From Nitrospirota bacterium (lineage in GTDB: Bacteria; Nitrospirota; Thermodesulfovibrionia; Thermodesulfovibrionales; SM23-35), in the NCBI GenBank assembly GCA_963796125.1, contig CAWCKM010000047.1, positions 66,299 through 130,298 on the forward strand: DNA of 64,000 nt, read 5' to 3'. The notes under the pieces are model-generated. The model did no database searches and was not told the origin of the DNA. It worked only from the letters and a program-made list of their open reading frames with translations. The translations under genes were made by a program, and so were the position numbers. Each line of letters begins with the position of its first letter. Position 1 is the first letter of the stretch. Shown here piece by piece: positions 2,193 to 53,458 of this stretch.

Positions 2193-2893
2193 AGACAGTC
2201 AACAGTCAACAGTCATCAGTCATCAGTCAAAGCAGAGAGCGAAGAGCGAAGAGCAAAGAGCAAAAGATAACGGCTGTTGACTTTAATCTTTATTTAATAA
2301 CTGACCGGAGACTATTTACTGATCATTTTTCACTATTCACTGCTGTTGAGGAGGCTCTGAAGGGCGGGTTAGAGGCGGTGCAACTGCGAGAGAAGGATTT
2401 AGGGACAAGGGATTTACTGGACATGGCTTATAAGATGAGAGATTTAACGAAGATGTATAAAGCAGAACTTTTCATTAATGACAGGGTTGATATTGCGCTT
2501 GCTGTTGAAGCAGATGGTGTTCATCTCGGGAGAGAGAGTATACCCGCTTCTGCAGTGCGAAAAACTTTTCAGAATAAACTCAAAATTGCTGTATCAACTC
2601 ATACCCTTGACGAGGCTCTTGAGGCAGAGAGGGGAGGTGCTGATTTTATCACTCTCGGCCCTGTCTATCATACTCCCTCTAAAATAAAATATGGAGAGCC
2701 AGTTGGTATTGAGACCCTGAGAAACATAAAGGCTAAAATCTCGATCCCCGTTTTTGCTATAGGGGGAATGAAATTAGATAACGTTGCAGAGGTGAAAGAG
2801 GCAGGTGCCTACGGTGTAGCATTGATCTCTGCAATTCTCACAGCAGAGCATGTCAAAGAAACAACAGAAGAATTTTTGAGGTTACTGAAATGA
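2189..2893 (+). CDS. thiE: Thiamine-phosphate synthase ThiE with a repeat-encoded N-terminal extension
   Basis: The body (LYLITDR..., [22 protein letters not shown]) is ThiE. Its GTG start overlaps the thiG stop (GTGA). The first ~30 codons are encoded by a heptamer array. Confidence 0.85.
2196..2265 (+). repeat. Heptanucleotide tandem array (cagtcaa x5 variants, then agcgaag/agcaaag x5)
   Basis: Ten consecutive 7-nt units are read directly from the sequence. Confidence 0.9.
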
Positions 2894-5620: not shown

Positions 5621-7011
5621 GGCATTTCCAAAAGCAAGGGATCTCTGCGTTCTCCTAAGGAATTAAGATAGTCCCTGGCTTCATCAAGTGCTCTCCTTAC
5701 GGCCTTCTTCCCGTATAGTCCGATTGCAACATGGAAGAAATCAAGATGGGTGAGGTGCTTGAAAATATATTTCCATGAATAAAATCGTCCCATTGCCTTG
5801 AGACTTTCGATATGAAGAGTCTGTGGGCTCATGAGAGAAGGTTCAAAGACGATATGATGGCCGTCATATTTGCTCCAGTCAATGTGGAGAAGCCTGCCTG
5901 ATTCTTTCATTTCATTAAAGAACGGTGTGCCCGGCAAAGGAGTAAGCATCAGAAATTGTATTGTATCAATGCCATGGGTTATGGCAAAGTCCGTTGTTTT
6001 TTTGAGGGTTTCTACCGTATCAGTGTCAGCGCCAAATACAAACATCCCATGAATTTCTATTCCATGGTCTCTGACCGTTCTGATACAGTGTATGATCTCC
6101 TCAAGGTTCTGTTTCTTGTTATATGCCTCGAGAGTTTTCGGGTTCACTGATTCAAAACCGATGTGAACGGTATCACAGCCTGCATCTGCCATAAGGCGTA
6201 ACAGTTCTTCGTCCTTAGCCACGTCTGTCCTCACCTGAGCAGACCACTTAAAACTAATGCGCTCAGCGATCATCGCACGGAGCAACTCCTTTGTCCGCTC
6301 CTTGTTTGCGGTAAAATTGTCGTCAACAAAAAACTTGTTGCCCTTTGAGAAAGAGTGGATGTGTTTTAATTCCTTCATCAGGATTTCAACAGACTTAAAC
6401 CGGTATTTTCTTCCAAACATCTGGATCACAGAGCAGAACTTGCAGTTAAAGGGGCATCCTCTTGATGTAGAAATGGGATAGATATTAGAGGGTTTCCACT
6501 GCTGAACGAGATGAAAATCAGGCAAAGGAAGTATATCAAGGTCTTCGATGAGAGGCCTCGGTGGATTATTGATAAGACCGCTGCCATTATTTCTGTAACT
6601 GAGGCCCTTTATTGAGGTAATGCCAGGAGTCCCTTTCTCAAGATAACCAACGAGTTCGGGCAGTGTCACATCTCCCTCTCCACGAACTACATAATCAGCA
6701 TGTTTCATTGCTTCTTCCGGAAGGAAGGAAGGATGAGCGCCTCCCATAACAACGGGAATCCCTTTTTTCCTGCATCTGTCTGCAATTCTATAGGCCCTCC
6801 TGGAAGTAGAGGTAATGGTAGAGATGCAGACGATATCAGAGTTTTCAATATAGGACCAGTCAGGGGCAGCAATATCTTCGATGAATGCCTTTACTTCGTG
6901 GCCGCGTTCTTTCAACATAGTAGAAAGCAGGACTGCGCCAAGCCTCGGAATCGGAAACTTGCTAAAAATATTGGCAGCGGGTGATTTTGCTTCGATAAAC
7001 GAGATTCTCAT
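5611..7011 (-). CDS. B12-binding-domain radical SAM protein
   Basis: N-terminal cobalamin-binding-like domain plus the CPFNCKFCS (CxxxCxxC) radical SAM motif; 466 aa. Confidence 0.8.
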   Translation of the reverse strand: MRISFIEAKSPAANIFSKFPIPRLGAVLLSTMLKERGHEVKAFIEDIAAPDWSYIENSDIVCISTITSTSRRAYRIADRCRKKGIPVVMGGAHPSFLPEEAMKHADYVVRGEGDVTLPELVGYLEKGTPGITSIKGLSYRNNGSGLINNPPRPLIEDLDILPLPDFHLVQQWKPSNIYPISTSRGCPFNCKFCSVIQMFGRKYRFKSVEILMKELKHIHSFSKGNKFFVDDNFTANKERTKELLRAMIAERISFKWSAQVRTDVAKDEELLRLMADAGCDTVHIGFESVNPKTLEAYNKKQNLEEIIHCIRTVRDHGIEIHGMFVFGADTDTVETLKKTTDFAITHGIDTIQFLMLTPLPGTPFFNEMKESGRLLHIDWSKYDGHHIVFEPSLMSPQTLHIESLKAMGRFYSWKYIFKHLTHLDFFHVAIGLYGKKAVRRALDEARDYLNSLGERRDPLLLEMPYS

Positions 7012-7232
7012 GCTTCTCCTTGATTAATAAAGGTTATTAAAAGATGTATCCTTTTTGGTGAGGAAGGAATAAAACTCCATGTCTAACAACTATAACATAA
7101 AAATGCATGTTTTAGGAGATAATTATTACATCTTTCATTGATTTGACTTCTGCCATTTCGTTCAGGTATGTTCACTATGGATTTTTCAACTCGCTGAAAA
7201 ATCTTATATTTATAAAGGAAAAATAACAACGT

Positions 7233-8705
7233 ATGCAAACCTATCCTGAATTTATTCCTGTAACTATAGACAAGAGCCATATTATCACCATAGGCGAGAG
7301 GATGTATGCCGAAAGCATCGAGTTTGTGAGAGAACTGGTGAATAATTCCTATGACGCTGATGCAAGTCTGGTTGAGGTTATTGTTGAAGAAGATACCATT
7401 GAAATAAGGGACAATGGAGCCGGTATGGACATTGAAGGGCTTAAACAATATTTCAATATCGGCTCACAACAGAAGCTTTATTCTCCAAAGTCTCCGATAT
7501 ACAACAGGGACAGGATCGGACAATTCGGCATAGGAAAGTTTGCAACCCTTTCTGCATGCAAGCGTTTTGAAGTCATTACAAGGAAAGATGGTTTTGTCGG
7601 AAGGGTTATCTTTGATAAGGAGCAATGGGAAAAGGCAGGGGATATATGGCAACTTCCTCTTGAGATACTCGCTGCAGATTTCAGAAAACAGAATGGCACA
7701 ACCGTCATATTGACAGGATTAGACAGAAGGTTTGATCCGAAAGACATAGAGGCAAAAATAATTGAAGGTACACCTATTAAGGCTCCCCATTTCAGAGTAA
7801 AAATAAATAATCATACTGTTACCCCGCGAAGCCTCACAGGTCACAGACTTCCATTTCTTGAAGGAACGTCCTTTGGCCCTGTAGCAGGAGAGATAATAAT
7901 CCTTTCTGAGACTGCTTCCATCGCCTCAGATCTCGGAATTGAAGTAAAGGTAAAACAAGTAACTATAAGAAGGGAGCTCTTCGGTATGGAAACATGGGGG
8001 AAGGCGATGGCAAGGGTCAGGGGTGAAGTGAATGCTGACTTCCTTCCTATAACGAGCGACAGGACTGGTTTTATAAGGGATTCCGATGAATATCGGGAAT
8101 TCCTCAAGGTTATGGAAAAGGTAATGGAGGGCGTAAAGGTATCTCTTCAGAAATTGACTATGAAGAAAGAAAGCAAAAAAGTCAGTCGTGCACTGAAAGA
8201 GGCACTTCAGAGGATATACAAGGCACTGGCAGTAAATCCTGATTTGTCACCTTTTGGTGCGATTCCCATTGGAGATGAGACAAGAGGCATAGGCAGTGCT
8301 GCTGAAATCTCTCAGAAAAAAGAAGAGGTCAGGGAATCAGAGGTCAAAGGAGAAGAAAAACCAAAAGCACCTGAGAAAAAGAGGAAAAAGAAACCAAAGG
8401 TAAAAAGGCTAACTCCTAATGCCATTATCAAAAAGATAAAATTTGGTGAAACAGGCGTCTCATGTGTTGTAGACAGCTTTGGAGAAGACGGTCCTGAGGT
8501 CTTCTCTGAAGAGACAACCATTTATTTAAACCGTGACCATCCCCTTTATAAAAGAGAATCTGCAAAGGTTGATACCCATGTACTAAACCTTGCAAGGCTT
8601 ATTACTCAGGAAATTTCCCTCATGAAAGACCCCCGAAATCCAAGACAGGCATTTGAGAGACAGAGCAAGCTTCTCAGGGATGCGTTTATTGAGAGAAGTG
8701 GTTGA
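7233..8705 (+). CDS. GHKL/HSP90-like ATPase domain protein (MORC-like) with a Lys-rich linker
   Basis: Bergerat-fold boxes are present: ELVNNSYDADA (N box), IRDNGAGM (G1), GQFGIGKFA (G2). There is a C-terminal KKEEVRESEVKGEEKPKAPEKKRKKKPKVK tract. Confidence 0.75.
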   Translation: MQTYPEFIPVTIDKSHIITIGERMYAESIEFVRELVNNSYDADASLVEVIVEEDTIEIRDNGAGMDIEGLKQYFNIGSQQKLYSPKSPIYNRDRIGQFGIGKFATLSACKRFEVITRKDGFVGRVIFDKEQWEKAGDIWQLPLEILAADFRKQNGTTVILTGLDRRFDPKDIEAKIIEGTPIKAPHFRVKINNHTVTPRSLTGHRLPFLEGTSFGPVAGEIIILSETASIASDLGIEVKVKQVTIRRELFGMETWGKAMARVRGEVNADFLPITSDRTGFIRDSDEYREFLKVMEKVMEGVKVSLQKLTMKKESKKVSRALKEALQRIYKALAVNPDLSPFGAIPIGDETRGIGSAAEISQKKEEVRESEVKGEEKPKAPEKKRKKKPKVKRLTPNAIIKKIKFGETGVSCVVDSFGEDGPEVFSEETTIYLNRDHPLYKRESAKVDTHVLNLARLITQEISLMKDPRNPRQAFERQSKLLRDAFIERSG

Positions 8706-8776
8706 TATTTTTTACCATAGAAGAAGCGAGAAGTGTCGTATTTCAGTCTTTTATTTGTACCACTTCTTCTACTGCG

Positions 8777-9091
8777 TTAAATTTCATCATCTCTTTTTCT
8801 TAAAGTCTCAATGGTGTACGAGAAATTACGCTTTCCGTGAATCAATGCAAGGATTGCAATTTTGTCTGGCAATATTTCGTAAATCAAACGATAAGAATAG
8901 ATGAATATTTCTCGTATGGTAAGTTCGCCAATCTCGGGAACGATTCTTCCAATCTCAGGAAAGGTAGTTAATTTTTCGGATTTTTCAACTATTTCAAGTG
9001 ATATTTTCTTCGCATAGAATTTGGAATCCCTTGCAATATAGTCATGGATCTGCTTTAAATCATGTTTCGCAGGCGTTGTCCACTTTACCAC
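8777..9091 (-). CDS. parE: ParE/RelE-family type II toxin
   Basis: 104 aa; A.HDL..I..YI...S..YA......I...LTTFPEIGR...E......REI.IYSYRLIYEI is a ParE-like pattern. GTG start. Confidence 0.85.
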   Translation of the reverse strand: MVKWTTPAKHDLKQIHDYIARDSKFYAKKISLEIVEKSEKLTTFPEIGRIVPEIGELTIREIFIYSYRLIYEILPDKIAILALIHGKRNFSYTIETLRKRDDEI

Positions 9092-9264
9092 GTCTGCATT
9101 TCTCTTTTTAAGTCTTCAAGAGAAATTGTGTCGTCGCGTTCTGCTGCATCCCTGCCTTTTTTAACTTTGTCAATCACATAAAGTTCATACATTATATCAT
9201 CAATATTTGCGGTATCAGGTAATTTTGCAATTACCTTGAGAGCTTCTTGTTTCAAGGTTTCCAT
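9085..9264 (-). CDS. Small antitoxin partner of ParE (59 aa, below the ORF-track cutoff)
   Basis: My own translation: METLKQEALKVIAKLPDTANIDDIMYELYVIDKVKKGRDAAERDDTISLEDLKREMQTW. Its stop overlaps the parE start (GTGGTAA). Confidence 0.6.
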   Translation of the reverse strand: METLKQEALKVIAKLPDTANIDDIMYELYVIDKVKKGRDAAERDDTISLEDLKREMQTW

Positions 9265-9318
9265 TCTTGCCCCTCCTTCATTTTCAAAACACCTTGAATT
9301 ATTTTATCATGTTATGGG

Positions 9319-9576
9319 TTAATCATCCATGCCACGAATACGAATTCTGGTTTCCTCCACTGGTAGCGGATGTTTTAGTTTTAAACCTACAAGAATCCAA
9401 TCTTCAAGTGTTGAACGCAGCGCATATTCACACTCGCGCAAAGTTTTTTCAAATGCAACAACACCAGAACATGAAGGAATCCGTCCAGCAAATGTGCCGT
9501 CTTCCAGCTTGTCATAGAGGGCTTGAGCCATCGCCCGCTCTATATACTCGCTAAGGATATGTCGTACTGTAGGCAT
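9319..9576 (-). CDS. HicB-like antitoxin-family protein (no adjacent HicA)
   Basis: 85 aa; ...DGTFAGRIPSCSGVVAFEKTLRECEYALRSTLEDWILVGLKLKHPLP resembles the HicB-like antitoxin fold. No toxin ORF lies beside it. Confidence 0.5.
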   Translation of the reverse strand: MPTVRHILSEYIERAMAQALYDKLEDGTFAGRIPSCSGVVAFEKTLRECEYALRSTLEDWILVGLKLKHPLPVEETRIRIRGMDD

Positions 9577-9653
9577 TGCATACCTCCATTTTGTGGAACT
9601 TTAACAAATTATATCAAAATTACTACGGAGTTCATAAGTAATGTCTCATGATT

Positions 9654-9677
9654 GTCATTCCCGCTTGTCGGGAATCC
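9654..9677 (-). repeat. Half copy of the GTCAT...GAATCC hairpin element
   Basis: gtcattCCCGcttgtCGGGaatcc; same arm as in 73-132 and 41170-41250. Confidence 0.6.
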
Positions 9678-9794
9678 GTCTTACGTCCAGAACAAAAAGG
9701 GAAATTTTCATCTGCTTAGGCTTTCTTTGTTAATCTTAAGCCCTCTGTTAACTGCCGTTGCAGACAGTTTAATAGAACCGTCCCAATACTTTCC

Positions 9795-9866
9795 AGAAAC
9801 CCAAGGCAGGCTTTTGAGCGACAGAGCAAACTTCTCAGGGATGCGTTTGTTGAGAGAAGCGGATAA
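9795..9866 (+). pseudogene. Displaced duplicate of the last 23 codons plus stop of the GHKL ATPase gene
   Basis: Encodes RNPRQAFERQSKLLRDAFVERSG*, against RNPRQAFERQSKLLRDAFIERSG* at 8634-8705. There are 10/72 nt differences: 8 synonymous, 1 Ile/Val, 1 TGA/TAA. There is no homology upstream. Confidence 0.75.
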
Positions 9867-10142
9867 TTAAGCAATGCTAATCTGCAACCGTTTTCCAAGT
9901 GCAGCCGCAACACGCTCTAATGTTGAGAGTTTAATGTCCTCTGAATGGTTTTCAATTCTCGAAATTGCTGTTTTCTTGGTTTTCAGCTTTCGCGCAAGTT
10001 CTTCCTGAGTTAACCCGGCAGATTCACGTGCCTGACGAAGCATTACACCAACTTTGAACTGTTCGTAGCCCTCATCATAGCCTTCAGCAAATTTTTTATC
10101 TCTCTTTTTTCTTTCGCTTATATATTTTTTCAGGTCACTCAT
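9867..10142 (-). CDS. higA: XRE-family HTH antitoxin (HigA-like)
   Basis: [31 protein letters not shown] is an HTH motif. The gene overlaps the upstream toxin gene by 8 nt. Confidence 0.8.
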
Positions 10143-10530
10143 GTTTTATCCTCCTTTTCAAAAAGTCTCTCCTGTAAGACTCTGCCTTTTCTATTTCAGA
10201 TTTTGGCGTTTTTTGGCTTTTCTTAACAATTCCATGTGTTAGCACAACAACCGAATCATCTACAAAGAAGCAAAATATGCGATACGCATTTGAACCGAAC
10301 TGAATTCTACACTCCCATATTTCTTCTGCTCCGTGAAGCTTCTTGAAATATGAGGATGGTACTATCTCCAAATCTTCTAATAAACTGAGCACCCATGTTG
10401 CCTTTTGTGCAACCTTTGAGGGTAAGGAATCAAGAAATTCCTGTGCAGGGCATTTACCATCAGCAGTTTTATAAAAGGTAATAACCCTGGTCACAGACAC
10501 TATGTTAACCTGCATGTTAACATTTGTCAA
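10135..10530 (-). CDS. higB: RelE/ParE-superfamily toxin (Gp49/HigB-like)
   Basis: ...[24 protein letters not shown]...L..L........YFKKL.G...[18 protein letters not shown]....VVVLTHG..KKSQKTP. The true start may be the internal Met at ~10515. Confidence 0.8.
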
Positions 10531-10749
10531 CTGATACTAAACGGTGAGGGCTGTATAACGTACGGGAAATTCTCCTATGTCAGCCTTTGGGTAGTCCTCT
10601 ATTAGCTGCCGGTCGCGGTATTTTAAGAAAACCGTTGTCCCGATTTCTACCTTTAAGGGGGATTATTTTTGAAGCTTTGTAGAAGATATGAAAGTAAAAA
10701 GGGCTGAGAGAGCAACCCTCAGCCTCCATCTTCAATGCTAAAAATCAAG

Positions 10750-11200
10750 GTTGTATCGTAAAGATCGTCACTGACATCTTTTACCAGCACGGTTCTTCAG
10801 GATCTTCCAATACTACTTTTATCTTGGCATCGCTTTTTGTCTTCAACTCTTATGTACTTGCCAAGGATACCATCCGAAATTGCCCGTACTAATAGCCATT
10901 AACTTCCAGGTACTTCCTCCATCAGAAGAGTTGATAAGTAATTTATCTTTCACAGTTTTTATCATAGATCTGTATCCCACCTCGCAAACCATTCTTGCCC
11001 TGATTCAAGGGTCTCCCCTCCATTGGTGAAGTTATAACTACTTTTGCTCCTTTTCCAGTTAATGGAACATTCGTCTGTCGGAGTGTCAGGGTCATTAGAT
11101 GGGATACTGAGAGTTGCACTCTTTAAGCCTGCTGCAGTAGGTGAGAATTTCACGTTAACTGTGCAGCTTGAACACATAGAAATTGGGACGGTTCTATTAT
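10750..11200 (-). pseudogene. Fragment of a repeat-domain surface protein
   Basis: SCTVNVKFSPTAAGLKSATLSIPSNDPDTPT and ...NSSDGGSTWKLMAISTGNFGWYPW domain pieces are interrupted by stops. No N- or C-terminus is present. Confidence 0.55.
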
Positions 11201-11343
11201 TGTCAATTAATTCGTGTTTTATAAAATGTTATTTGTCCGAAGTTTTCAATGAACAACAACATATTCTGCAAAAGATGTAGACTCAGGAATCGGCAAATTA
11301 TCCTCCAACAAACCCCGTACATGCCCTGACTGCTTCACCAACA

Positions 11344-11577
11344 TCAACAACTTTCAGCAAAATCAAAAACAGGAATTTCCAGTTTCTTAACAGGCTTAAA
11401 TTTGTCTTTTGCGAACTTCAATAACTCGTCAGTAACATCAGGAGAATAAGTTTTCTCTCCACACCGTTCGCAGACCTCGGCAGGCACATGTTCAACAAGA
11501 AAATACTTGCCTTCCTCTTCATAACTGAAGGTCGCCAACATTTTCTTCGTTTCACCGCCGCAAAAAACGCATCTCAT
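11344..11577 (-). CDS. YgiT/MqsA-type zinc-finger antitoxin-like protein
   Basis: MRCVFCGG...HVPAEVCERCGEKTYSP has paired CxxC motifs; 77 aa. Confidence 0.7.
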   Translation of the reverse strand: MRCVFCGGETKKMLATFSYEEEGKYFLVEHVPAEVCERCGEKTYSPDVTDELLKFAKDKFKPVKKLEIPVFDFAESC

Positions 11578-11708
11578 TCCTTTTTCCTCCTAACTCTGTA
11601 ATCTATCCATTCGGTCTTATCCGGATCATAAGCTGTAATAATAACAACTGTCGGCGGAAGTGAAAGCTGCACATGAAGATGTCTACCAGCTTTAGATAAG
11701 GGTTTCAA
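11574..11708 (-). pseudogene. N-terminally truncated DUF4258-like toxin remnant
   Basis: My own translation: ...LHVQLSLPPTVVIITAYDPDKTEWIDYRVRRKKE*. The stop overlaps the downstream ATG (ATGA). Only ~44 codons remain and a stop lies immediately upstream. Confidence 0.5.
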
Positions 11709-11796
11709 TGGTTAAATTATTGATTAAAGCCCCTATGTTGTCAAGGAATTTTCTGAGTCGGGTGTAAACATTCAGTGGCGCGTGAGTATATCATAA

Positions 11797-11841
11797 CCCC
11801 ACCTAACCTCCCCTTATCTTTAAGGGGAGGAATAAGCCCTC
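11797..11841. repeat. GC-rich hairpin element (cctcccctta-tct-ttaaggggagg + aataagccctctc)
   Basis: Palindrome read from the sequence. It shares the aataagccctctc tail with 39322-39392. Confidence 0.6.
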
Positions 11842-12071
11842 TCATCGCTGGAGGATTACAGTCTAGGTCGAGACATCATTGAAGCCGATGCAGCGATTCC
11901 GCTATAATTATGAAGTCATCTTTAATGAACTCGAAAGTTGATTCCGCGGTTTCTGTAGGCGGATGATCAAAGCAATCTAAAGACGAGATTCTCGCTGCGC
12001 TCAGAATGACAAGCGCAGTAAAGCTATGTATGAGACAGCACACTAATTTGTTCTGTTATAATGATTGAATC

Positions 12072-13433: not shown

Positions 13434-14028
13434 TATCACCTTGATTTTCTTATGCTCCTGCGCACCAAAGCGGGTCGAGATTCCGACATATGAAGGTATT
13501 GATATTAGGGAAGTTCTCTCTGCAAAGAATATCTCAACAATAGATACTACATTTTCAATAGTATTTGAAAAAGATGATAGCGAGATGAGAGGAGAGGGGG
13601 TTTTAAATATATCAAGGAATGGTGATCTCAATCTCCGGGTATATTCCCTGGGATTTCTTGCGCTCGAAGTAATATCTGAAAATGGCGTGATTAAGAGCAG
13701 TCCCCGAATAGACAGGAACAAAACTAAAATACTCACCCAGGGCCTGCGGGACTGTCTCTTCTGGTGGGATATACAGGATTACGAGGTTGATGAGAAAGAC
13801 GGCATGTGTCATCTGAAAAATCTCTCGAGGGAGGTATGGTTCGACAAAAAGACAACACTGCCGATAAAGCAGAAAGTAGCCCTTGAAAATGGCAGGGAGC
13901 TTTCTATTTCATATGAAGATATGGAGAAAATGGGTGATGTCTGGTATCCTTCGACGATTACCATAGATCTCTCTCAATATTCTGTCAAATTGAAAATCAA
14001 GGAGATATCATTCAGTGGTGACGTTTAA
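13399..14028 (+). CDS. Hypothetical lipoprotein (LolB/DUF4292-like size and layout)
   Basis: Lipobox LIFLCSC. The family assignment is tentative. Confidence 0.45.
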   Translation: MLRALSRLFLLSITLIFLCSCAPKRVEIPTYEGIDIREVLSAKNISTIDTTFSIVFEKDDSEMRGEGVLNISRNGDLNLRVYSLGFLALEVISENGVIKSSPRIDRNKTKILTQGLRDCLFWWDIQDYEVDEKDGMCHLKNLSREVWFDKKTTLPIKQKVALENGRELSISYEDMEKMGDVWYPSTITIDLSQYSVKLKIKEISFSGDV

Positions 14029-14832
14029 GTCGAGATCAATAGCTACGGTCTTAATGAGCTGACTGTCAATGGAATCTGTCTTGAGCAGATATCCCTCAAG
14101 GAGCGCATTATCACAGATTGCGTTAATGAGCCTGGCTACACCTCCGGAATACTGAAAAATAAGTTTCAATGCCTCCCCAGTAAATATCTTCTTCTTGCTC
14201 CCTGCAACCGAGAGCCTGTGATCAATATAACTTCTTGCGTTTTCCTCAGAAAACGCCTTAAGTCTTATCTTCACAGCGACTCTTTGTCTGAGGGGTTCAT
14301 CCAGGGAAAGGACATCGTCAAGATCAGGAAGACCGAAGAAGATGAGATTGACCAGCTTTCCCTCCGGCATTTCCATATTCAAAAGACCCCTGAATTCTTC
14401 CATGATCCCCTTGGAGCTTAACATCTGCACCTCGTCGAGCATGACAATGGCAATCCTGCCTTCCTCTTTGATTTCATAGAGTCGCCTGTAAATCTGGGAA
14501 AGAAGCGTAACCTTGTCTTCCTTCACGTCTGAAACACCGAGCTGCATAGCTAATTTTTTCAGTACCCATTCAGCACTGACTGTTGAATGGACAACCATCA
14601 GGAGAGCCGCTTCATATTTCTTTTCGTCCAGTTGTTCAAGGAAAAGCCTTGCAAGTGTCGTCTTACCCGTCCCTATATCACCGATGACGACAGCGAGACC
14701 TTTTCTGGTATCTACTACATATTGCAGCTTCACGAGAGCGTTCGAATGCTGTGGATTGTTAAAATAAAACCTGTTATCTACTACATTCGAGAAGGGGTGT
14801 TCTTTCAGACCGTAATATTCCAAATAGTCCAT
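14008..14832 (-). CDS. ExeA/MshM-like AAA ATPase
   Basis: YGLKEHPFSNVVDNRFYF... followed by Walker A GDIGTGKTT and Walker B MLDEVQ; 274 aa. Confidence 0.75.
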   Translation of the reverse strand: MDYLEYYGLKEHPFSNVVDNRFYFNNPQHSNALVKLQYVVDTRKGLAVVIGDIGTGKTTLARLFLEQLDEKKYEAALLMVVHSTVSAEWVLKKLAMQLGVSDVKEDKVTLLSQIYRRLYEIKEEGRIAIVMLDEVQMLSSKGIMEEFRGLLNMEMPEGKLVNLIFFGLPDLDDVLSLDEPLRQRVAVKIRLKAFSEENARSYIDHRLSVAGSKKKIFTGEALKLIFQYSGGVARLINAICDNALLEGYLLKTDSIDSQLIKTVAIDLDLNVTTE

Positions 14833-14861
14833 GTTTCACTGTTCACTGTTTGCAGTTTTGA
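14833..14861. repeat. Heptanucleotide array (gtttcact gttcact gtttgca gttttga)
   Basis: Lies immediately 5' of the minus-strand ATG at 14832. Same AGTGAAC unit as 31288-31322. Confidence 0.7.
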
Positions 14862-28994: not shown

Positions 28995-29082
28995 TTCAGA
29001 ATACAGAAAACAGTATTCAGAATACGGCATTCGGAAAGCTTATTTTTTACTGTTTACTGTCTACTATCTGCTGTTTACTTTT
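28995..29082 (+). repeat. Two adjacent heptanucleotide arrays (ttcagaa/tacagaa x6; tactgtt/tactgtc x5)
   Basis: The 7-nt units are counted base by base. The arrays are separated by 11 nt and end 3 nt before the accD ATG. Confidence 0.85.
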
Positions 29083-29085
29083 AAT

Positions 29086-29919: not shown

Positions 29920-31285
29920 GCTACGGCGAGACAATTCATTACCTCTATAGTCTTCAGAAACAGGGTATCAAATTCGGTCTCGATAATATCACCAGTCTGA
30001 TGTCATCTCTTGGTGATCCTCAGAAATCATTTCCTTCCCTCCATGTTGCAGGCACCAACGGGAAGGGTTCAACATCAGCTATCATTGCGTCTGTACTCAG
30101 GACGCTTGGTCTCAAGGTCGGTCTTTTCACATCACCTCACCTAGTAAGTTTTACCGAGAGGATCAGGATCAATGATGAAGAAATACCGGAATTCGAGGTA
30201 ATACATATTGCCGAGGAGTTAAGAACAAAGATCTTGCAGATCCAGGCTTCTGACCCAGGCTTTTTACCTACCTTCTTCGAGGTTGTAACTGCAATGGGAC
30301 TGCTTTATTTCAAGAGGGAACAAATAGATATTGCGGTAATAGAGGTAGGGATGGGAGGAAGACTCGATGCTACAAATATCATCATCCCTGAGGTTTCCGT
30401 TATTACAAGCATAAGCTATGACCACAGAGAATTTCTTGGAAATACTCTCAAAGAAATAGCTTACGAGAAAGCAGGCATTATCAAAAAAGATATTCCTGTG
30501 GTCATCTCTCCTCAAATTCCAGAGGTTTTAGAGGGTATTGAAGAAAGAGTGAAGGAGAACAGGCACCGTTTCCTGTCTGTACGGCAGGGATTTTTCAGCA
30601 GCTCTCAAAAGAGAGGATGTTTCGGGAATATACTTTGATTACTACAGTAATAATTCTCTTATGCTCCATGATTTATACCTTCCTCTTACCGGTGAACATC
30701 AAATGCAGAACGCCTCTGTTGCAATAAAGGCAGTTGAATTGTTTTTTGAACGCAGGCTAAGCCGAGCTCTACGACTCATTACATCACTTCCAATCAAAGA
30801 TGGTCTCGCAACGGTGAAGTGGCCGGGAAGACTTGAGATGATAAAAGACGACCCGCCTCTTCTTATCGATGGAGCGCATAACCCTGCTGCAGCAGTTGCT
30901 CTCTCCCGCGCACTGGAAAATACATTCCTTAAACAATATAAAGGGATTATTCTTGTCCTCGGAATTATGGGTGACAAAGATATAGAGGGTATTATGAAGC
31001 CTCTTCTTCCCCTGGCTTCAGAAATCATACTGACTTCCCCTCATTACGAGAGGGCTGCTCCTCCCGACAGACTCGCCAGTGTAGCTGCATCTTTAGGGTT
31101 CCCTGATGTACGCACTGCGCCAACCGTAAAAGATGCTCTTGAATTGGCTCAAAATATCTTGTCGAGCAGTTAAATCACCATACTCTCACTCGTCACTTAT
31201 TGTGGTAACGGGTTCGTTTTACACCATAGGAGAGGCAAAGGAGTGTATCGGTTACAGAGGTGTGCTCACGAGGCTGCGGGAATAG
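29916..31285 (+). pseudogene. folC: Folylpolyglutamate synthase/dihydrofolate synthase FolC, at least 2 frame breaks
   Basis: HVAGTNGKGST P-loop. The middle part (LYGRDF...LPLTGEHQMQNA...DGAHNP) is in another frame from ~30555. The last 38 aa (...IVVTGSFYTIGEAKE...) are in a third frame from ~31165. Confidence 0.9.
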
Positions 31286-31287
31286 AA

Positions 31288-31322
31288 GTGAACAGTGAAC
31301 AGTTATCAGTGAATAGTAAGAA
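31288..31322 (+). repeat. Heptanucleotide array (gtgaaca gtgaaca gttatca gtgaata gtaagaa)
   Basis: Read directly from the sequence. Confidence 0.85.
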
Positions 31323-31380
31323 ATATGCTATTAATCTCTCAAGTTCTTAAAAATTATTTGAGATCTTTGGTTGTATTCTT

Positions 31381-31448
31381 GTCATGCCGGCTTGTCCGGC
31401 ATCCTTCTTTGAAGAAAGATTCCCGAGGCGACGACAAGCGGGAATGAC
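31381..31448 (+). repeat. Two-hairpin GTCAT...ATGAC element, copy B
   Basis: Near-identical to 73-132 apart from a 7-nt insert (ggcgacg). The flanking ~25 nt up to an ATG are also conserved. Confidence 0.8.
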
Positions 31449-33400
31449 AGACAACCAGTGGAACAGAGTTCGCTATGAAATTATTTTCATTATTTTACTA
31501 TTCACTATTCACTATTCACTATTTACTAATTATTGTTTTGCACAAGGAGAAACAACCATAACTTCCGAGACCCTTGAATACATAGAAAGTACATCCACAT
31601 ATATCGCAAAAGGTTCTGTGAAGATTACGAGCGGAGGGAGAGTCATTGAAGCAGATGAGATGATCTACAATGAACAGACAACCGGTATCAGTGCGTCAGG
31701 CAACGTACGGTATGATGACGCCCAGGTGGTAATCACGTCAAGTAAGCTGGAGTTGAATATGGAAACAGATACAGGCAAAGTTTATGATGCAGTGATCTTA
31801 TTCAAAAAAGACAGTTATCATATCTCCGGGAAATCGATCGAAAAGAGGGGTGAGAAGTATTACTATGCCCCTGAGGCAACATTCTCTACCTGTGATGATC
31901 CTGTTCCTGCATGGTCTTTCAAAGGTAAAGATGTAGATCTCCAGGTCGATGAGAGGTTAAAGGCAAAACATGTATCTTTTTACATCAAGGATGTTCCAGC
32001 GCTCTATACCCCTTATTTCTTTCTTCCTTTCCATACCGACAGAGAAACAGGTTTTTTGATTCCGGTTGTAGATTACAGTACTTCAAGGGGATTGCACCTG
32101 AACATTCCTTTTTACTGGGTCATATCAGAAAACAGGGATGCAACTGCGGTACTGGATGTCTATTCAGAGAGGGGAATCGGGGAGGGTCTGGAATACAGAT
32201 ATATAGAACCGGAAGGCATCAAAGGAAACTGGTGGCTTTACCATATAAGGGACACGGAACTTAATAAGGATTTCTTTGAAATGAGGGCATTGCATGAACA
32301 GAGGTCACAAGAAAGACTGGGAGGGTTTCTGAGCATCAACTTTGTCAACGAAAAAGATTTCTACAGAGAGTTCAGTCCCTACCTTGAGGTAAGCACACTC
32401 CGATTTCTTGAGTCTACAGGAGAGATCTCTCTCCCTCTCAGGAACTCCCGTGCTTATCTTCTAACTCAGTACTGGGTAGACCTGGAAGAGGAGCTAAGAC
32501 CTCCATTGCAGAGATTACCGGAAGCAGGATATGTCCTTTATCCTACAAAGGTCGGTCCTTTCTGGTTTTCCGGCACATCAACAGTCTCCAATTTCTGGAG
32601 GGATGAAGACATGTTTGGGCAGAGGCTTGATATCTACCCGGGGATGTTATCCAAGGTCGGTAATGAGTTTGTCCTTACCCAGTCACTTGGTTTTCGGGAA
32701 ACAGCCTATGCCCTGCACAGGACAGAGGAGGACTCATTACATAGAGAGGCAATTGAATATAACATTGGAGTCCATACAAGTCTTTTGAAAAGATATAGTT
32801 CCTTTACACATGTTATAGAACCATCAATCGGATATACCTTCATCACTGACTTCAGAAGATCCTCCTCTTTTCGATTCAACAGAACTTTTTAAAAAGACAT
32901 CGACAGTAGGAGCCTCCCTCGTTAACCGGTTCTTTTATAAAGGTGGAGAAGTCGCTATTTTCAGGGCTACACAGTCCTTTGATGCAGAGTTAGGTGACAG
33001 GCCGTTTCTGCCGTTCAGACTCGAGGTCGGGATTAAGAAGCCTGTCTCTCTGCGCCTTGATACAGCTTATGATGTACATGAAGGGAAGCTTGACAGCATA
33101 AATTCTGACTTGTCTTTCAATATCCCTAGAGGAACACTGTTTGTTGGGCAGAGATATAACAGGCTGGAGGATGTAGTCTATTACAGGGCAGGATTTGACC
33201 TTTACCCGTCTAAACCCTGGTATGTAAGAGGAGTGATATGGTACGACGACGATATGAAAGAAATCCGGGACATTTCTATAGATCTGAGATATTCGAGCCA
33301 GTGCTGGGGTGTGAATGTAGAATTTATTAAGAGACCCCATGACTTTACCTTCGCAGTAATGTTTGATCTCAAGGGTATTTCGAAAGGCTTCAAGATATAA
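31444..33400 (+). pseudogene. lptD: LPS-assembly protein LptD (OstA family), frame break near 32854; start uncertain
   Basis: OstA-like N-terminal domain and beta-barrel body. The C-terminal ~180 aa (EDPPLFDSTELF...RYSSQCWGVNVEF...) continue in the +1 frame to 33400. The in-frame ATG at 31444 lies inside the repeat. Confidence 0.85.
31493..31527 (+). repeat. Heptanucleotide array (attcact x3 plus variants) inside the lptD signal-peptide region
   Basis: attttact attcact attcact attcact atttact. Confidence 0.85.
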
Positions 33401-38956: not shown

Positions 38957-39032
38957 TGGAGGCGGCGAGCGGATTTGAACCGCTGCATAAAGGTTTTGCA
39001 GACCTCTCCCTTAGCCACTTGGGTACGCCGCC
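38957..39032 (-). tRNA. tRNA-Cys (GCA)
   Basis: The reverse complement ggcggcgta...gaggtCTGCAAAacctt...agcggTTCAAATccgctcgccgccTCCA folds as a 76-nt cloverleaf with anticodon GCA and an encoded CCA. Confidence 0.9.
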
Positions 39033-39041
39033 GTTAACGAC

Positions 39042-39137
39042 AGTTATAAGTTAAGAGTTAGTGAGTTAAGAGTTAAGAGTATTTAATCCAATTATAATTG
39101 CCTTTAACTTTCAACTCTTAACTTCATTCACTTCAAA
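39042..39137. repeat. Inverted pair of AGTTAAG heptamer arrays between the two tRNA genes
   Basis: 39042-39084 reads agttata agttaag agttagtg agttaag agttaag agtattt. 39103-39137 is the same unit in reverse complement. The arms can pair (gttaagagt/actcttaac). Confidence 0.75.
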
Positions 39138-39159: not shown

Positions 39160-39235
39160 TGGAGCGGGCGACGGGATTCGAACCCGCGACCCCAACCTTG
39201 GCAAGGTTGTGCTCTACCAACTGAGCTACACCCGC
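39160..39235 (-). tRNA. tRNA-Gly (GCC)
   Basis: Reverse complement gcgggtgtagctcagttggtagagcacaaccTTGCCAAggttggggtcgcgggttcgaatcccgtcgcccgctcca; anticodon GCC, CCA encoded. Confidence 0.95.
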
Positions 39236-39242
39236 ATAAAAA

Positions 39243-39271
39243 AGTTATTAAGTTAAAAGTGAAAAGTTAAA
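39243..39271 (+). repeat. Heptanucleotide array (agttatta agttaaa agtgaaa agttaaa)
   Basis: Read directly from the sequence. Confidence 0.75.
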
Positions 39272-39321
39272 AATCTCTAAGTACAACATCCAATGGTGCG
39301 TGGTATATCATAAGCCATCAC

Positions 39322-39392: not shown

Positions 39393-39534
39393 GTTATCAT
39401 TCAACTCGTCATGCAGGATTACTATGTATAGATAGTAACTGTTAACTATAACTCTCTACTCTTAACTTGTCTTTAATTTATAGGCTATAATGAATGATGT
39501 TGAATATTAATGAAAAAACACGGGCTTTGTCAAT

Positions 39535-41079
39535 ATGGTCTACCCTGATTTAGAAGAGCTTTAAGATCCCTTTCATCAAAGGGAAATCTTAATTCCTGTT
39601 TACAGGGAGATTCTTGCTGATACAGATACACCTGTGTCAGCAGCCCTGAAACTTGGGGGGACCCCGTCATTTTTGCTCGAAAGCGTTGTAGGGGGTGAAA
39701 AATGGGCACGGTATTCCTTCCTTGGTTCAAGACCATCAAAGGTCATTAAGAAGCTGGGGCAGGAGAGTAGAAATAAAGGATGAAAAAAGGAAGAAACAGG
39801 TCTTTGACGTAGATGATCCTCTTGATATTATTAAGAATGAGATTAAAGCTTATAATCCTGTTGATGTTAAGGGTTTACCAAGGTTCTGCGGCGGTCTTGT
39901 TGGTTATATAGGGTATGACATGGTCAGATTTTTCGAGAAGGTTCCTGATCAGAAAAAACCCGGCCTCGACCTTCCTGATATGTTTTTCATGGTTGCAGAT
40001 ACAATGCTAATTTTTGACGGTCTCAGACAAAATATAAAAATTGTATCCAATGCCTATCTCGATGGCAAAGATAGTACTGAGGCATACTCAGAGGCTGTAG
40101 AAAAAATAGAGAGAGTGGTGGAACGGCTTAAACGGTCAGGGGTAAAGCAAAGAGCAAAGAGCAAAGAGCAAAGAGTAAAGGGCAATAAACAGGGAGATCC
40201 CGGAGTTCAGTACTCTGCTTCAAATGCTGAATTCTCTTCAGGGTATTCATCGTCTTTTGTTACACGGGATGCATTTGAGAAAGCAGTGCTCAAGGGAAAG
40301 GAATACATAATGTCCGGCGATGTTGTTCAGGTTGTCCTTTCCCAGAGGTTTGAACGTGAGTCTCATGTTGATCCCTTCCATATATACAGGGCATTGCGTG
40401 TTATAAACCCTTCTCCCTACATGTACTATATCGATACAGGCGATGCAAAAATTGTAGGCTCATCCCCTGAGATACTGGTAAGGCTTGAGGGTCGAAAGAT
40501 CATTCTGAGACCTATTGCAGGAACCCGGAAAAGAGGGGAGACAGAAGAAGAGGATGCGTTACTTGAAGCAGAACTCAGAGATGATCCGAAAGAAAAAGCC
40601 GAGCATATCATGCTCGTTGACCTCGGAAGGAATGATGTCGGGAGGGTTGCAGAGACTAGGTTCTGTGAAGGTCACAGAACTTATGACTGTTGAAAGATAC
40701 AGCCATGTTATGCATCTTGTCTCGAATGTAGAAGGTAATCTGAAAAACGGACTTGATGCCTTTGACGTGTTAAGAGCCTCTTTCCCTGCAGGGACTGTTA
40801 CAGGGGCTCCAAAAGTGAGGGCGATGGAGATTATAGAAGACCTTGAACCAACGAGGAGAGGCCCTTATGCAGGTGCTGTTGGCTACTTCAGCTATTCAGG
40901 GAACATGGACACCTGTATTACGATAAGAACTCTTGTCATTAAAGATAATAAAGTTTATGTTCAGGCAGGGGCAGGAATTGTAGCTGACTCGATTCCGCTG
41001 AAGGGAGTATACTGAAACCTTGAATAAGGCAATGGGAATGATGAGGGCTGTTGATATGGCGGAAAAGGAAATAAGTTAA
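39535..41079 (+). pseudogene. trpE: Anthranilate synthase component I TrpE, about 5 frame breaks
   Basis: All conserved blocks are present but spread across frames: MVYPD / ..LSSKGNL / [22 protein letters not shown] / WGRRVEIKD...[13 protein letters not shown] / [22 protein letters not shown]...GAGIVADS / EYTETLNKA...*. The junctions are at ~39549, 39591, ~39750, 40658 and ~41004. Confidence 0.9.
40146..40187 (+). repeat. Heptanucleotide array (agcaaag x4, agtaaag, ggcaata) inside trpE
   Basis: Six units (42 nt, so in frame) encode ...KQRAKSKEQRVKGNK... in a surface-loop position. Confidence 0.85.
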
Positions 41080-41127
41080 GGTTAAAAGTTGCAGAAAAAG
41101 TTCGAAAAGTGAGAAGTTAAAACTTGA
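41074..41127 (+). repeat. Degenerate heptanucleotide array (agttaag gttaaaa gttgcag ... agtgaga agttaaa)
   Basis: Read directly from the sequence; the period drifts. Confidence 0.6.
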
Positions 41128-41169: not shown

Positions 41170-41250
41170 GTCATTCCCGCGTAGGCGGGAATCCAGAATC
41201 AAATGAATACACTTAAGAGCTATCTGGATTCATGCTTTCGCAGGAATGAC
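41170..41250 (+). repeat. Two-hairpin GTCAT...ATGAC element, copy E
   Basis: gtcattCCCGCgtagGCGGGaatccag ... ctggattCATGCtttcGCAGGaatgac. Confidence 0.75.
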
Positions 41251-51857: not shown

Positions 51858-53458
51858 ATGAAAAATGAGATAGTTGATTTTCTCATCATAGGCAGTGGTG
51901 TTGCAGGGCTCAGGGCCGCCATAGAGCTTGCACCCTACGGGAGTATCCTTATCGCGACAAAGGACAGACCAAGGGAGAGCAGCACCGAGTATGCCCAGGG
52001 GGGTATCGCTGTTGCACTGAGTGATGAGGATGAAATAGGTATCCACTATGAAGATACCCTCAGAGCCGGAGATGGTCTCTGCAGGGAAGAAGCCGTGAAA
52101 ATACTCGTTGAGGAAGGCCCTGAAAGGATTATGGAGCTTATATCATGGGGTGCAGAGTTCGACAAAGAGGGAACAAAGCTTGACTTCACGATTGAGGCTG
52201 CCCATTCAAGAAGGAGAATACTGCATGCCCATGGTGATGCAACGGGAAGGGAACTCGAGAGAGTTCTTCTCGGAAAGGTAAATTTTTTTACATCTATTAT
52301 CACCTATCCCTTTTCCTTTACTATTGATCTGATTGTTCGAGATGAGGAATGTCATGGTGCTTACATTTTAAAGGGGAGAGAAATCATCGCTGTGTCCGCC
52401 GGAGCAACAATTTTGGCTACAGGCGGAGGATGCCAGGTTTTTTCGAGGACAACAAACCCGCCTGTTTCAACAGGAGATGGTATGGCAATAGCCTTCAGGG
52501 CAGGAGCAATGCTGGAGGACATGGAACTCATACAGTTTCATCCAACAAGTCTCTATTCTCCTCTTGCTCCCCAGTTTCTCCTCAGTGAGGCGATGAGGGG
52601 GGAAGGGGCGATACTCAGGAATATAAGGAAAGAAAGATTTATGGAGGATTACCATCCAATGGCAGAACTTGCTCCAAGGGATGTCGTATCACGTGCAATT
52701 ATATCAGAGATGGTTGCAACACGAAGTGACTATGTGTATCTTGACCTTACACATCTCGGGAAGGAATTTCTCAAGAAAAGGTTTCCACGGATTTATTCAA
52801 CCTGTCTCCAGTATAACATTGACATTGCCAGAGAGCTTGTTCCTGTTTCTCCGGCAGCCCATTATATGATGGGTGGTGTCAAGACTGACACCGGAGGTAG
52901 CACAAACATAAGAGGACTCTATGCAGCCGGAGAAGTTGCCTGTACGGGTGTGCACGGCGCGAACAGACTTGCGTCGAATAGCCTGCTCGAGGGTCTGGTC
53001 TATGGTGCGAGAACAGGGAAGACAGCGTTAGATTCTCCTGTTTCCAAAAGGACAGTTAGCATTAAGAGGTGATGAAATAACCGCATTACATGCCACTCGT
53101 CACTCGTTACTCATCTATTCCTGACCATGAAGAAACAAGACATGAACTGAGGAAGCTTATGTGGGAAAGGGTTGGCATTATCCGATGTGGGGAATCTCTC
53201 GGTTATGCAAAGGATAGACTTGCAGAATGGTCTTTCATGCAGGAAATAACTCCTCTTACGAGAAGGGAACTTGAACTGAAAAACATGCAGGTTGTGGCTT
53301 ACCTCATAACAGAGGCTTCTCTTCAGAGAAAGGGGAGTGCAGGCGCCCATTACAGATCTGATTATCCTGAAAAAGGAGAGGGATGGCAGAAGCATACTGT
53401 ATGGAGAATGAAAGATGGAGGAGTTGTTGATACCCGAAGCGTCCGCGAAACAGCATAA
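51858..53458 (+). pseudogene. nadB: L-aspartate oxidase NadB, with the C-terminal helical domain in a different frame
   Basis: DFLIIGSGVAGL, TGDG, HPT and RLASNSLLEG are in frame 0 and end at 53072. ...HELRKLMWERVGIIR...GAHYRSDYP is in frame 2 from 53081. Joining them needs two +1 steps; otherwise the gene is a genuine two-ORF split. Confidence 0.85.
53094..53114 (+). repeat. Heptanucleotide array (cactcgt cactcgt tactcat) at the nadB frame junction
   Basis: Read directly from the sequence. Confidence 0.7.

Follow-up and report, generated by a model that had tools for sequence, protein, structure and literature searches.

Heptanucleotide tandem arrays with a shared AGT core and convergent inverted pairs in a genome of the Thermodesulfovibrionales

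A 64,000 nt stretch of contig CAWCKM010000047.1 (positions 66,299 to 130,298; termed here the window), from a Nitrospirota bacterium of the order Thermodesulfovibrionales, carries 14–17 short tandem arrays with a 7-nt period. The arrays are of a known kind, the heptanucleotide long simple sequence repeats (LSSRs) that resemble the STRRs (short tandemly repeated repetitive sequences) of cyanobacteria, and this kind is here extended to the Nitrospirota/Thermodesulfovibrionales. They are a DNA-level phenomenon and are probably for the most part non-adaptive. The account that we favour, with some reservation, is that they are STRR-like repeats of the Thermodesulfovibrionales, generated by heptanucleotide slippage and foldback, filtered by what the genome tolerates and occasionally co-opted.

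The material consists of the window and about 250 kb of related loci (contigs designated by L numbers). Contigs of the same species, with 97–98% DNA identity, are present in several metagenomes. Arrays were called with Tandem Repeats Finder (TRF), followed by a scan with a matrix of the core motif. Period-7 TRF calls are found at 2195–2230, 2231–2264, 14835–14850, 29046–29083, 31287–31317, 31497–31528, 39049–39080, 39240–39272, 40146–40185 and 53094–53112, that is, at or beside nearly all coordinates at which an earlier note on this DNA had placed tandem heptamers. The tract at 28995–29036 is scored by TRF as period 14. Two tracts of that note, the degenerate 41074–41127 and 39103–39137, are weaker; neither has a TRF call, and each is partly recovered by the core-motif scan. 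Two arrays beyond those previously listed were found, both on the minus strand: 39436–39470, upstream of trpE, and a degenerate one at 2310–2344. An excess over shuffled sequence, which the earlier note had expected of genuine arrays, is present when measured on the window. Period-7 runs of at least two exact copies number 17, versus a mean of 3.6 and a maximum of 10 in 100 dinucleotide shuffles, and runs of at least three exact copies number three, versus none in the shuffles. Together with the TRF calls, this excess shows the tracts to be real. Periods 8–12 display no excess over dinucleotide shuffles in the window. The only Rfam matches in the window are a thiamine pyrophosphate (TPP) riboswitch and two tRNAs; none of the arrays matches an RNA family.

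The arrays share a sequence core. The alignment was unsupervised, with each of 14 window arrays picking the strand and rotation that maximise mutual similarity. The consensus is A-A-N-A-G-T-N (equivalent to AGTnAAn), with an information content of 5.65 bits versus 4.10±0.20 (maximum 4.86) in column-permuted controls. This objectively derived AAnAGTn is the same as the AG(T/C)-N-A-H-N core in strict 7-nt phase (AGTNAHN) that the earlier note had read from the sequence. A scan for three in-phase units with the core matrix finds 17 sites versus 0.62 in shuffles; the matrix derives from the same arrays and the scan is partly circular, the shuffles serving as the control for the count. Twenty-five arrays from 11 loci of other Nitrospirota genomes yield the core AAAGTnA, with 5.54 bits versus 4.10±0.13. 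The core thus characterises the lineage and is not peculiar to this window. At three loci from other phyla the core signal is weaker (4.75 bits versus 4.13±0.18).

At least four arrays are situated within open reading frames (ORFs), in the N-terminal extension of ThiE, the interdomain linker of TrpE, the signal peptide of LptD and a linker of a NadB-like protein. The units of ORF arrays are all stop-free on the sense strand, and units that contain TAA or TGA (AGTTAAG, AGTGAAC) are confined to non-ORF DNA or to the extreme ends of ORFs. The thiE arrays are the clearest case. GTG at 2189, which overlaps the thiG stop codon, is the only canonical in-frame start, none other being present before the conserved LYLITD, and the arrays are thus read as a 33-residue N-terminal extension. 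When the segment before LYLITD is measured in 120 relatives, it is 4–10 residues long in proteins without an array (e.g. MIDFK followed by LYLITD) and 33 in the clade of the window. Variants of 26 (33 minus 7), 20 and 13 (20 minus 7) residues also occur, and with an in-frame insertion of a GC-rich palindromic element (…PPSPPFLKGGKGG…) the segment reaches 42 or 63 residues. Seven residues correspond to 21 nt or three units, which is the step expected if slippage continues and only frame-preserving outcomes survive. In six independently assembled contigs of the same species the thiE array is of equal length and differs by substitutions only; relative to L001 there are four differences in ∼72 nt, versus a divergence of 1.9% over the surrounding 4.8 kb, which suggests that the array is under relaxed constraint.

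The TrpE linker presents a similar picture over greater distances. Relatives have arrays at the same position but with other units: AAAGTTC in L011 and L008, GTTCAAC in L010, AGTCAGG in L097, GTCAACA in L098, and AGAGCAA followed by ACTCGTC in L096. These arrays are confirmed in the DNA. In more distant genomes the linker is short and non-repetitive. Across 120 relatives the linker segment varies from 38 to 80 residues and includes 7-residue steps (P0013 versus P0001, P0015 versus P0007). The segment is built as a mosaic from array translations (KQRAKSKEQR, SGVRSQE, QQSLVNS, SSLVTRH, KFQIPNS), and in relatives a translated miniature inverted-repeat transposable element (MITE), with the sequence NPPLPPFxKGGxGG, is located between two arms. 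In lptD, which starts at ATG 31444, an (ATTCACT)n array encodes the hydrophobic core of the signal peptide, LLFTIHYSLFT. This core is kept in L097 and L098, and the heptamer periodicity is still visible in the L097 DNA. A start at ATG 31475, which needs an extra base, was dropped, as the comparison with L097 and L098 shows the ORF frame from ATG 31444 to be correct. In L096, whole array pairs are inserted in frame in trpE and in two adjacent oppD/oppF-like ABC ATPase genes. Each of the latter has a convergent pair of AGTAACG followed by ACTTGTC units (5977–6048 and 6868–6941); one of the two pairs is close to the C-terminus of its protein, the other within the C-terminal third. Gene callers translate arrays and inserted MITEs into housekeeping proteins, and the resulting length variation should not be read as functional domains.

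The earlier note pointed out that 7 = 1 mod 3, so that gain or loss of one unit inside a gene shifts the reading frame. The arithmetic is correct, and it matters because at least four arrays lie inside ORFs, but the data display conservation of frame rather than switching. It is thus very improbable that the arrays are contingency loci at which one-unit gain or loss switches genes (phase variation), and in the assembled contigs and relatives compared there is no evidence of it. One single-unit indel does distinguish strains, in an intergenic array. The thiE array, however, is identical in length in seven same-species contigs, the ORF arrays of relatives differ only by 7-residue steps, and the array-associated genes (thiE, trpE, lptD, the nadB-like gene and accD) are housekeeping genes rather than genes for surface proteins or antigens. 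The apparent trpE frameshifts, moreover, are single-base differences outside the array. Array-driven splitting was considered for the interrupted trpE, nadB-like and folC ORFs. For trpE it was rejected: no other same-species contig has the single extra bases (40657 and 41003) that break this ORF, and they are treated as assembly errors or strain-specific lesions. The split of the nadB-like gene near the array at 53094 is probably an assembly frameshift.

Whole-unit indels and turnover of units are evident from comparisons between strains and species. A 51 kb same-species alignment has a single indel of more than 6 nt within an array, at 29009 (versus L092), and its length is precisely that of one unit (AACAGTA). 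The arm next to accD is of the TTTACTG type in the window and of the CACTCGT type in L092, with identical AccD proteins, which represents a concerted replacement of units; the two accD arms of L092 (CAGAATA versus GAGTGAC units) are no longer complementary. The trpE–trpG spacer (41060–41316 versus L087–L091) has three alleles among strains with identical TrpG: one of 12 bp, one of 223 bp with a MITE and no array, and one of ∼240 bp with an array and a different MITE copy. The array at 41074–41127 is missing from the same-species alleles L087–L091, and the inserts are unrelated between alleles. This spacer is an insertion hot spot, and its alleles, like the short tRNA spacer of L007 described below, indicate that the arrays are dispensable. 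The MITE-like GC-rich elements (41170–41250, 31380–31451 and about 250–340 of L087) have the form GTCATTCCCGC-N4-GCGGGAATC ... GAATGAC. In many Thermodesulfovibrionales, TrpE and ThiE include in-frame translations of related elements, which read NPPLPPFxKGGxGG.

Array sequences are concentrated outside genes. ORFs make up 85.8% of the window in a greedy ORF map, and 335 of the 537 array bases (∼62%) are in the remaining ∼14%, so that arrays are about ten times as dense there as in ORFs. The accD pair fills the whole upstream spacer, from 1 nt after the preceding stop codon to 3 nt before the ATG. The earlier note had also stated that many tracts end within a few nt of a start codon, in accD, the exeA-like gene and lptD. 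This is correct for accD and for the exeA-like gene, whose ATG the array abuts, but not for lptD, where arm 1 is 122 nt upstream of the start and arm 2 is within the ORF. At the accD and exeA-like starts the adjoining arrays leave no visible Shine-Dalgarno sequence, and the exeA-like array is kept in three same-species contigs.

This raises the question of whether the arrays are cis-acting post-transcriptional signals, at which a single-strand nucleic acid-binding protein with a ∼7-nt footprint (ribosomal protein S1, a cold-shock protein or an RRM-type protein) recruits or blocks ribosomes at starts without a Shine-Dalgarno sequence. The same model has been proposed for the TAACTGA repeats of Beggiatoaceae (PMC4679880), and there are hints from Nostoc recF/recO reporters (bioRxiv 10.1101/2022.06.06.494920). 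Arrays that end 0–3 nt before the exeA-like and accD ATG codons, the persistence of the exeA-like array within the species, a shared core that could be the binding motif, and the presence of RRM_1 genes at two related loci are consistent with such a role. The orientation of the arrays relative to transcription is mixed, which is in keeping with slippage repeats; the sense strand is AGT for the exeA-like gene and thiE, but ACT for accD, lptD and the nadB-like gene. In addition, strains that encode the same AccD have different units next to accD, same-species strains lack the array upstream of trpG, and several arrays are in ORFs, in a tRNA spacer or in DNA that is probably untranscribed promoter sequence. 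A post-transcriptional role for the arrays as a class therefore appears unlikely.

The RRM_1-type genes for RNA-binding proteins are at 1418–1744 of L097, next to rpsU, and at 20234–20572 of L098. An RRM-type gene beside rpsU is an arrangement typical of cyanobacteria, another lineage rich in heptamers. The RRM_1 genes might correlate with array density.

Arrays also occupy the tRNA-Cys/tRNA-Gly and tRNA-Gly/trpE regions, and those of the latter are old. tRNA-Cys (38957–39032) and tRNA-Gly (39160–39235), both on the minus strand, are separated by 127 nt in the window and by 2 nt in L007. Two further arrays, termed A and B, flank the divergent tRNA-Gly/trpE region. Array A is kept in L007, L008 and L012, and array B in L007 and L008. 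They align between genomes whose TrpG proteins are 79–84% identical, where the rest of the tRNA-Gly/trpE spacer is unalignable. The last unit of array B supplies TTAACT, the −35 hexamer of a promoter-like TTAACT-18-TATAAT (39462–39491) before the trpE ATG at 39535. An insertion of ∼175 nt relative to L007 and L008 is present between arrays A and B (39276–39435) and contains two GC-rich hairpins, CTCGCCTCACC...GGCGAGGC and GCCCTCTCTTAAGTAAGAGGGGC.

Many arrays occur as inverted pairs, and these have a polarity. The five pairs in the window (2194/2310, 28995/29041, 31284/31496, 39039/39099 and 39248/39450) all have the AGT-strand arm first. Polarity was determined with the core matrix in the window and all other-species loci, for opposite-strand neighbours within 350 nt. 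Eleven neighbours are convergent and one is divergent (two-sided binomial p = 0.006), and the single divergent case consists of two adjacent pairs separated by tRNA-Gly. Some pairs are orthologous, and the independent count is estimated as ∼8–9 to 0. Motif-based orientation replaced pairing by purine content or TRF alone, which is noisy; one counter-example at the TRF level is 1237/1284 of L009. Since an inverted pair reads alike on both strands, neither transcription nor replication can account for the polarity through its direction. The polarity suggests that pairs are made in a strand-asymmetric way or that their architecture is like that of terminal inverted repeats.

Several pairs can fold as RNA. 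Relative to shuffled sequences, folding z-scores are −4.05 for the tRNA-Cys/tRNA-Gly spacer, −6.6 for the long-range stem of the lptD arms and −2.05 for the accD arms; arrays taken singly lack RNA structure, with z between −1.3 and +1.1. Inverted STRR arrays that form hairpins have been described between hupS and hupL, and a role in the transcript has been suggested for them (PMC2670836). The pairs might then function as RNA hairpins, serving between cistrons or tRNAs as sites for RNase III or RNase E, or else as elements that stabilise transcripts or as weak bidirectional terminators. We consider this improbable, as the accD arms of L092 are not complementary, pairs are also found inside ORFs, the tRNA-Cys and tRNA-Gly genes of L007 need no spacer, and the stems are AT-rich and weak. 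In addition, arrays A and B are probably on different transcripts, one next to tRNA-Gly and the other upstream of the promoter-like site of trpE, which suggests that pairs originate at the DNA level rather than the RNA level.

Another possibility is that the convergent pairs are mobile or enzyme-made modules and the single arrays half-modules. They would be foldback elements moved by a transposase or, alternatively, scars of end repair, in which a dedicated polymerase or reverse transcriptase extends both 3′ ends with AGT-core heptamers before joining. Terminal inverted repeats of consistent polarity, a mark of MITEs and foldback elements, are indeed found here, the AGT arm being first in 11 of 12 cases, and the convergent-pair architecture recurs in L096, L097, L098, L046 and L018. 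The core is common to arrays and species. Filled and empty sites exist between species (the tRNA spacer) and between strains (the trpE–trpG spacer), although with imprecise boundaries, and the L096 genes have whole pairs in frame. MITEs are found within loops or alongside arrays. Insertions in loops comprise the MITE-like element at 31380–31451, the insertion between arrays A and B, and the translated MITE in TrpE and ThiE of relatives. On the other hand, no target-site duplications, fixed element termini or conserved ends were recognised in the spacer sequences inspected, and the 64-kb window has no transposase or reverse transcriptase genes. Arm lengths and unit sequences vary by locus, and the A/B and lptD pairs are old and stationary across species. 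The arm at 2310–2344 is in a conserved part of ThiE, and relatives that lack arm 1 have this part of the protein as well. Mobile or enzyme-made modules are thus a doubtful explanation.

The favoured account, slippage and foldback under a filter of tolerance, can be outlined as follows. Arrays would grow, shrink and homogenise through replication slippage. They would also frequently be copied in inverted orientation, a step that we infer, which would produce convergent foldback pairs with the AGT arm first that are able to extrude hairpins. The loops of these pairs would be preferred landing sites for small palindromic MITEs. As the comparisons show, arrays persist in operon spacers, tRNA spacers and promoter-proximal DNA. 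In genes, only stop-free units in disordered segments and only three-unit changes (21 nt, 7 residues) survive. Most arrays may have no dedicated function, with passive co-option in a few cases: the trpE stop codon, the trpE −35 hexamer, the hydrophobic signal-peptide core of LptD, and the leaders of accD and the exeA-like gene, which lack a Shine-Dalgarno sequence. The shared AGT core would come from a strand-asymmetric bias in generation rather than from selection for a common function.

Several observations weigh against this account. Arrays A and B are retained over long distances, and the arrays of the LptD signal peptide and the TrpE linker across the order. Such persistence resembles the effect of selection, or of continual regeneration, more than that of pure drift. 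Neither the shared AGT core nor the strict convergent polarity is predicted by plain slippage. The arrays at the accD and exeA-like starts replace a recognisable Shine-Dalgarno sequence, which matches the translational-control idea from Beggiatoaceae (PMC4679880). Finally, the window assembly has 1-nt errors, and exact array lengths taken from the window alone call for caution, although the length of the thiE array is corroborated by six other assemblies.

Positions of the arrays and associated elements in the window (arms of a pair are numbered in order of position)
Feature	Position	Strand	Context
Array (CAGTCAA/CAGTCAT)x5	2194..2230	+	2 nt past thiG stop, within thiE ORF
Array (AGCGAAG/AGCAAAG)x5	2231..2269	+	abuts the 2194..2230 array in the same orientation; translated in ThiE
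Degenerate inverted arm	2310..2344	-	inside thiE, encodes FTDHFSLFT; uncertain, chance match or very old array
Array (AACAGTG)x2-4	14830..14861	-	abuts ATG of exeA-like AAA_22 ATPase gene (14008-14832, minus)
Arm 1, accD pair	28995..29036	+	starts 1 nt after stop of metallo-beta-lactamase-fold gene
Arm 2, accD pair (TTTACTG on + strand)	29041..29083	-	ends 3 nt before accD ATG 29086
Arm 1, lptD pair (AGTGAAC)	31284..31322	+	upstream of lptD
MITE-like GC-rich palindrome TGTCATGCCGGC...GCGGGAATGACAG	31380..31451	+	loop between lptD arms; right end overlaps lptD ATG 31444
Arm 2, lptD pair (ATTCACT on + strand)	31493..31537	-	inside lptD, encodes LLFTIHYSLFT
Arm 1, tRNA-spacer pair (AGTTAAG)	39039..39084	+	tRNA-Cys/tRNA-Gly spacer, 127 nt
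Arm 2, tRNA-spacer pair	39099..39137	-	tRNA-Cys/tRNA-Gly spacer
Array A (AAGTTAA/AAGTGAA)	39240..39275	+	5 nt upstream of mature 5′ end of tRNA-Gly
Array B (TAACTnT on + strand)	39436..39470	-	inverted partner of array A, upstream of trpE ATG 39535
Array (AGCAAAG)x6, 42 nt	40143..40187	+	in frame, trpE interdomain linker (KQRAKSKEQRVKG)
Degenerate array (AGTTAAG, GTTAAAA ...)	41074..41127	+	trpE–trpG spacer; first unit gives trpE stop codon
MITE-like palindrome GTCATTCCCGCGTAGGCGGGAATC ... GATTCATGCTTTCGCAGGAATGAC	41170..41250	+	adjoins the 41074..41127 array in polymorphic trpE–trpG spacer
Array (CACTCGT)x3, 21 nt	53094..53114	-	NadB/SdhA-like flavoprotein, linker between FAD-binding and C-terminal domains

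Cyanobacterial STRR heptamers were reportedly described by Mazel and co-workers in 1990 (see also Vioque 1997). They occasionally occur inside genes, as in that for the RNase P RNA of cyanobacteria. The units of STRR1–3 are reportedly CCCCAGT, TTGGTCA and CAACAGT. CAGTCAA, the unit at 2195–2230, is a rotation of CAACAGT, which we take to be STRR3, and is the only match to these units in the window, the others being different. The earlier note had likened the tracts to the STRRs of heterocystous cyanobacteria. The likeness is borne out in the 7-nt unit length, the dispersal of short arrays, the existence of several unit families, the mostly intergenic location, often within operons, the inverted arrays able to form hairpins, and the occasional arrays in genes. 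The host, however, is not a heterocystous cyanobacterium but belongs to the Nitrospirota/Thermodesulfovibrionales, and membership of the STRRs as originally delimited thus fails on host range. Unlike STRRs, nearly all units here share one core (AAnAGTn), the arrays are read in frame in housekeeping proteins, and the highly iterated palindrome HIP1 is absent. The strict convergent polarity of the pairs may be a further distinction.

The TAACTGA direct repeats of marine Beggiatoaceae, also found in some cyanobacteria and Bacteroidetes (MacGregor 2015, PMC4679880), are similarly heptamer arrays, of 2–6 copies. Many are directly upstream of starts without a Shine-Dalgarno sequence, some overlap upstream stop codons and some are translated at the protein periphery, all of which is paralleled here. 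The reverse complement, TCAGTTA, holds the AGT core, and its rotation AGTTATC fits AGTNAHN. Upstream of lptD in L097 (9713–9748), TGATAAC is repeated three to five times; TGATAAC x3 is a rotation of the Beggiatoaceae unit. No exact TAACTGA array is present in the window, only sites with two mismatches inside other arrays. In addition, Beggiatoaceae have one dominant unit in one orientation to the downstream gene, whereas many units in both orientations are found here. Only two arrays abut starts, in opposite orientations, and the rest are elsewhere.

For prokaryotic heptanucleotide LSSRs, polymerase slippage has been proposed as the origin (Mrazek et al. 2007, as summarised in PMC4679880 and PMC4692102). 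As far as the summarised descriptions go, the arrays resemble these and the GGGAATC repeats of Xanthomonas (Rehm et al. 2015) in the over-representation of period 7, the intergenic bias, the variation between close relatives, the occasional inverted pairs and the proposed origin by slippage. In contrast to GGGAATC, as it is described there, the units here are A/T-rich with an AGT core and not G-rich quadruplex formers. In-frame colonisation of ORFs and pair polarity also set the arrays apart from those parts of the LSSR and Xanthomonas descriptions that were compared. In other respects the arrays behave as LSSRs of the 5–11 nt class do: they are longer and more numerous than expected by chance, and copy number changes by whole units between relatives. 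Rickettsia palindromic elements are small repeats that occupy permissive sites of housekeeping proteins, where they are inserted in frame, and eukaryotic foldback transposons have long inverted termini of short tandem subrepeats and variable loops. The likeness to both is architectural only, as neither transposition machinery nor target-site duplications nor defined termini were found here. Within the portions of the heptamer-repeat literature compared, there is no mention of an order-wide, in-frame colonisation of TrpE, ThiE and LptD with 7-residue steps, of a convergent-polarity rule, or of MITE capture in loops.

Heptamer repeats are known from cyanobacteria, Beggiatoaceae, Xanthomonas and others, with no consensus on origin or function. 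To our knowledge, this class of repeat has lacked a mechanism since its description in 1990. Perhaps, though we would allow this only a small chance, the arrays are not passive products of slippage but are left behind by a dedicated activity that treats the two strands differently and writes or recognises heptamers with the AGT core, such as templated 3′-end extension in break repair or a transposase for foldback modules with heptamer arrays as inverted termini. If so, it would explain why the period is fixed at 7 nt, why the core is shared and why the polarity of pairs is almost without exception convergent, and it would supply the class with a mechanism. It could also be the process behind the cyanobacterial STRRs and the TAACTGA repeats of Beggiatoaceae, whose units likewise carry AGT/ACT. 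The Thermodesulfovibrionales, with many near and distant metagenomic genomes, constitute a good comparative system for the origin of the arrays. They offer orthologous arrays across the order (TrpE linker, ThiE N-terminus, LptD signal peptide, tRNA-Gly/trpE spacer), three-unit ORF steps constrained by frame, and a testable polarity rule for inverted pairs.

The host assignment is based on gene content and protein relatives. Genes in the window include those for a sigma-54-dependent response regulator, LptD, an ExeA-like ATPase and MutL, together with thi, trp and lpx genes. The best relatives of TrpG are from Nitrospirae/Nitrospirota metagenome-assembled genomes (MAGs), with 75–84% identity, and the relatives of TrpE and ThiE have source names of Thermodesulfovibrionales or Nitrospirota. 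Proteins identical to AccD and to the ExeA-like ATPase are encoded in the MAGs GCA_964588365.1 and GCA_036782055.1, respectively. A cyanobacterial origin is ruled out by the sigma-54 activator, LptD, the ExeA-like gene, the lack of any HIP1 site in the 64-kb window and the Nitrospirota neighbours. Three loci found via TrpG are also rich in period-7 arrays, with different or weaker cores: L046, labelled an Actinomycetota MAG (12 arrays in 20 kb), L018, of the Thermodesulfobacteriota (6 in 20 kb), and L072, of the Desulfobaccales (3 in 3.6 kb). The remaining 70 loci mostly have zero or one.

The TPP riboswitch (Rfam RF00059, 75 bits) is at 925–1025, upstream of thiS-thiG-thiE-thiC-thiD. It heads the thi cluster, and the thiE heptamer arrays thus lie in a riboswitch-controlled operon.

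Arrays may be awkward for assembly. The window assembly has single extra bases relative to every same-species contig at 1244, 1299, 14937, 40657 and 41003; that near 41003 is seen directly as GGG versus GG. Such bases interrupt trpE and probably further genes. Other ORF breaks are at 30638/30661 (folC-like), 53072/53090 (nadB-like), about 39560 (5′ end of trpE) and 32892 (lptD). The extra bases and breaks look like the product of an error-prone (perhaps long-read) assembly rather than real pseudogenes.

Two other differences from related contigs were noted. The gene of a 759-residue tetratricopeptide repeat (TPR) protein differs in length at 15602–16018, with ∼416 nt versus ∼100 nt in L093/L094 (2133–2234), which is probably a variation in the copy number of TPR repeats. 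Between 7120–11950 and L001 11167–16646, identity falls from 98% to 91% to 82% and is then lost. Past this point L001 has HicB-like antitoxin and phage-integrase genes and the window has a Gp49-like gene (10135–10530), and the region, which is downstream of the thi cluster, has the appearance of an island that varies between strains.

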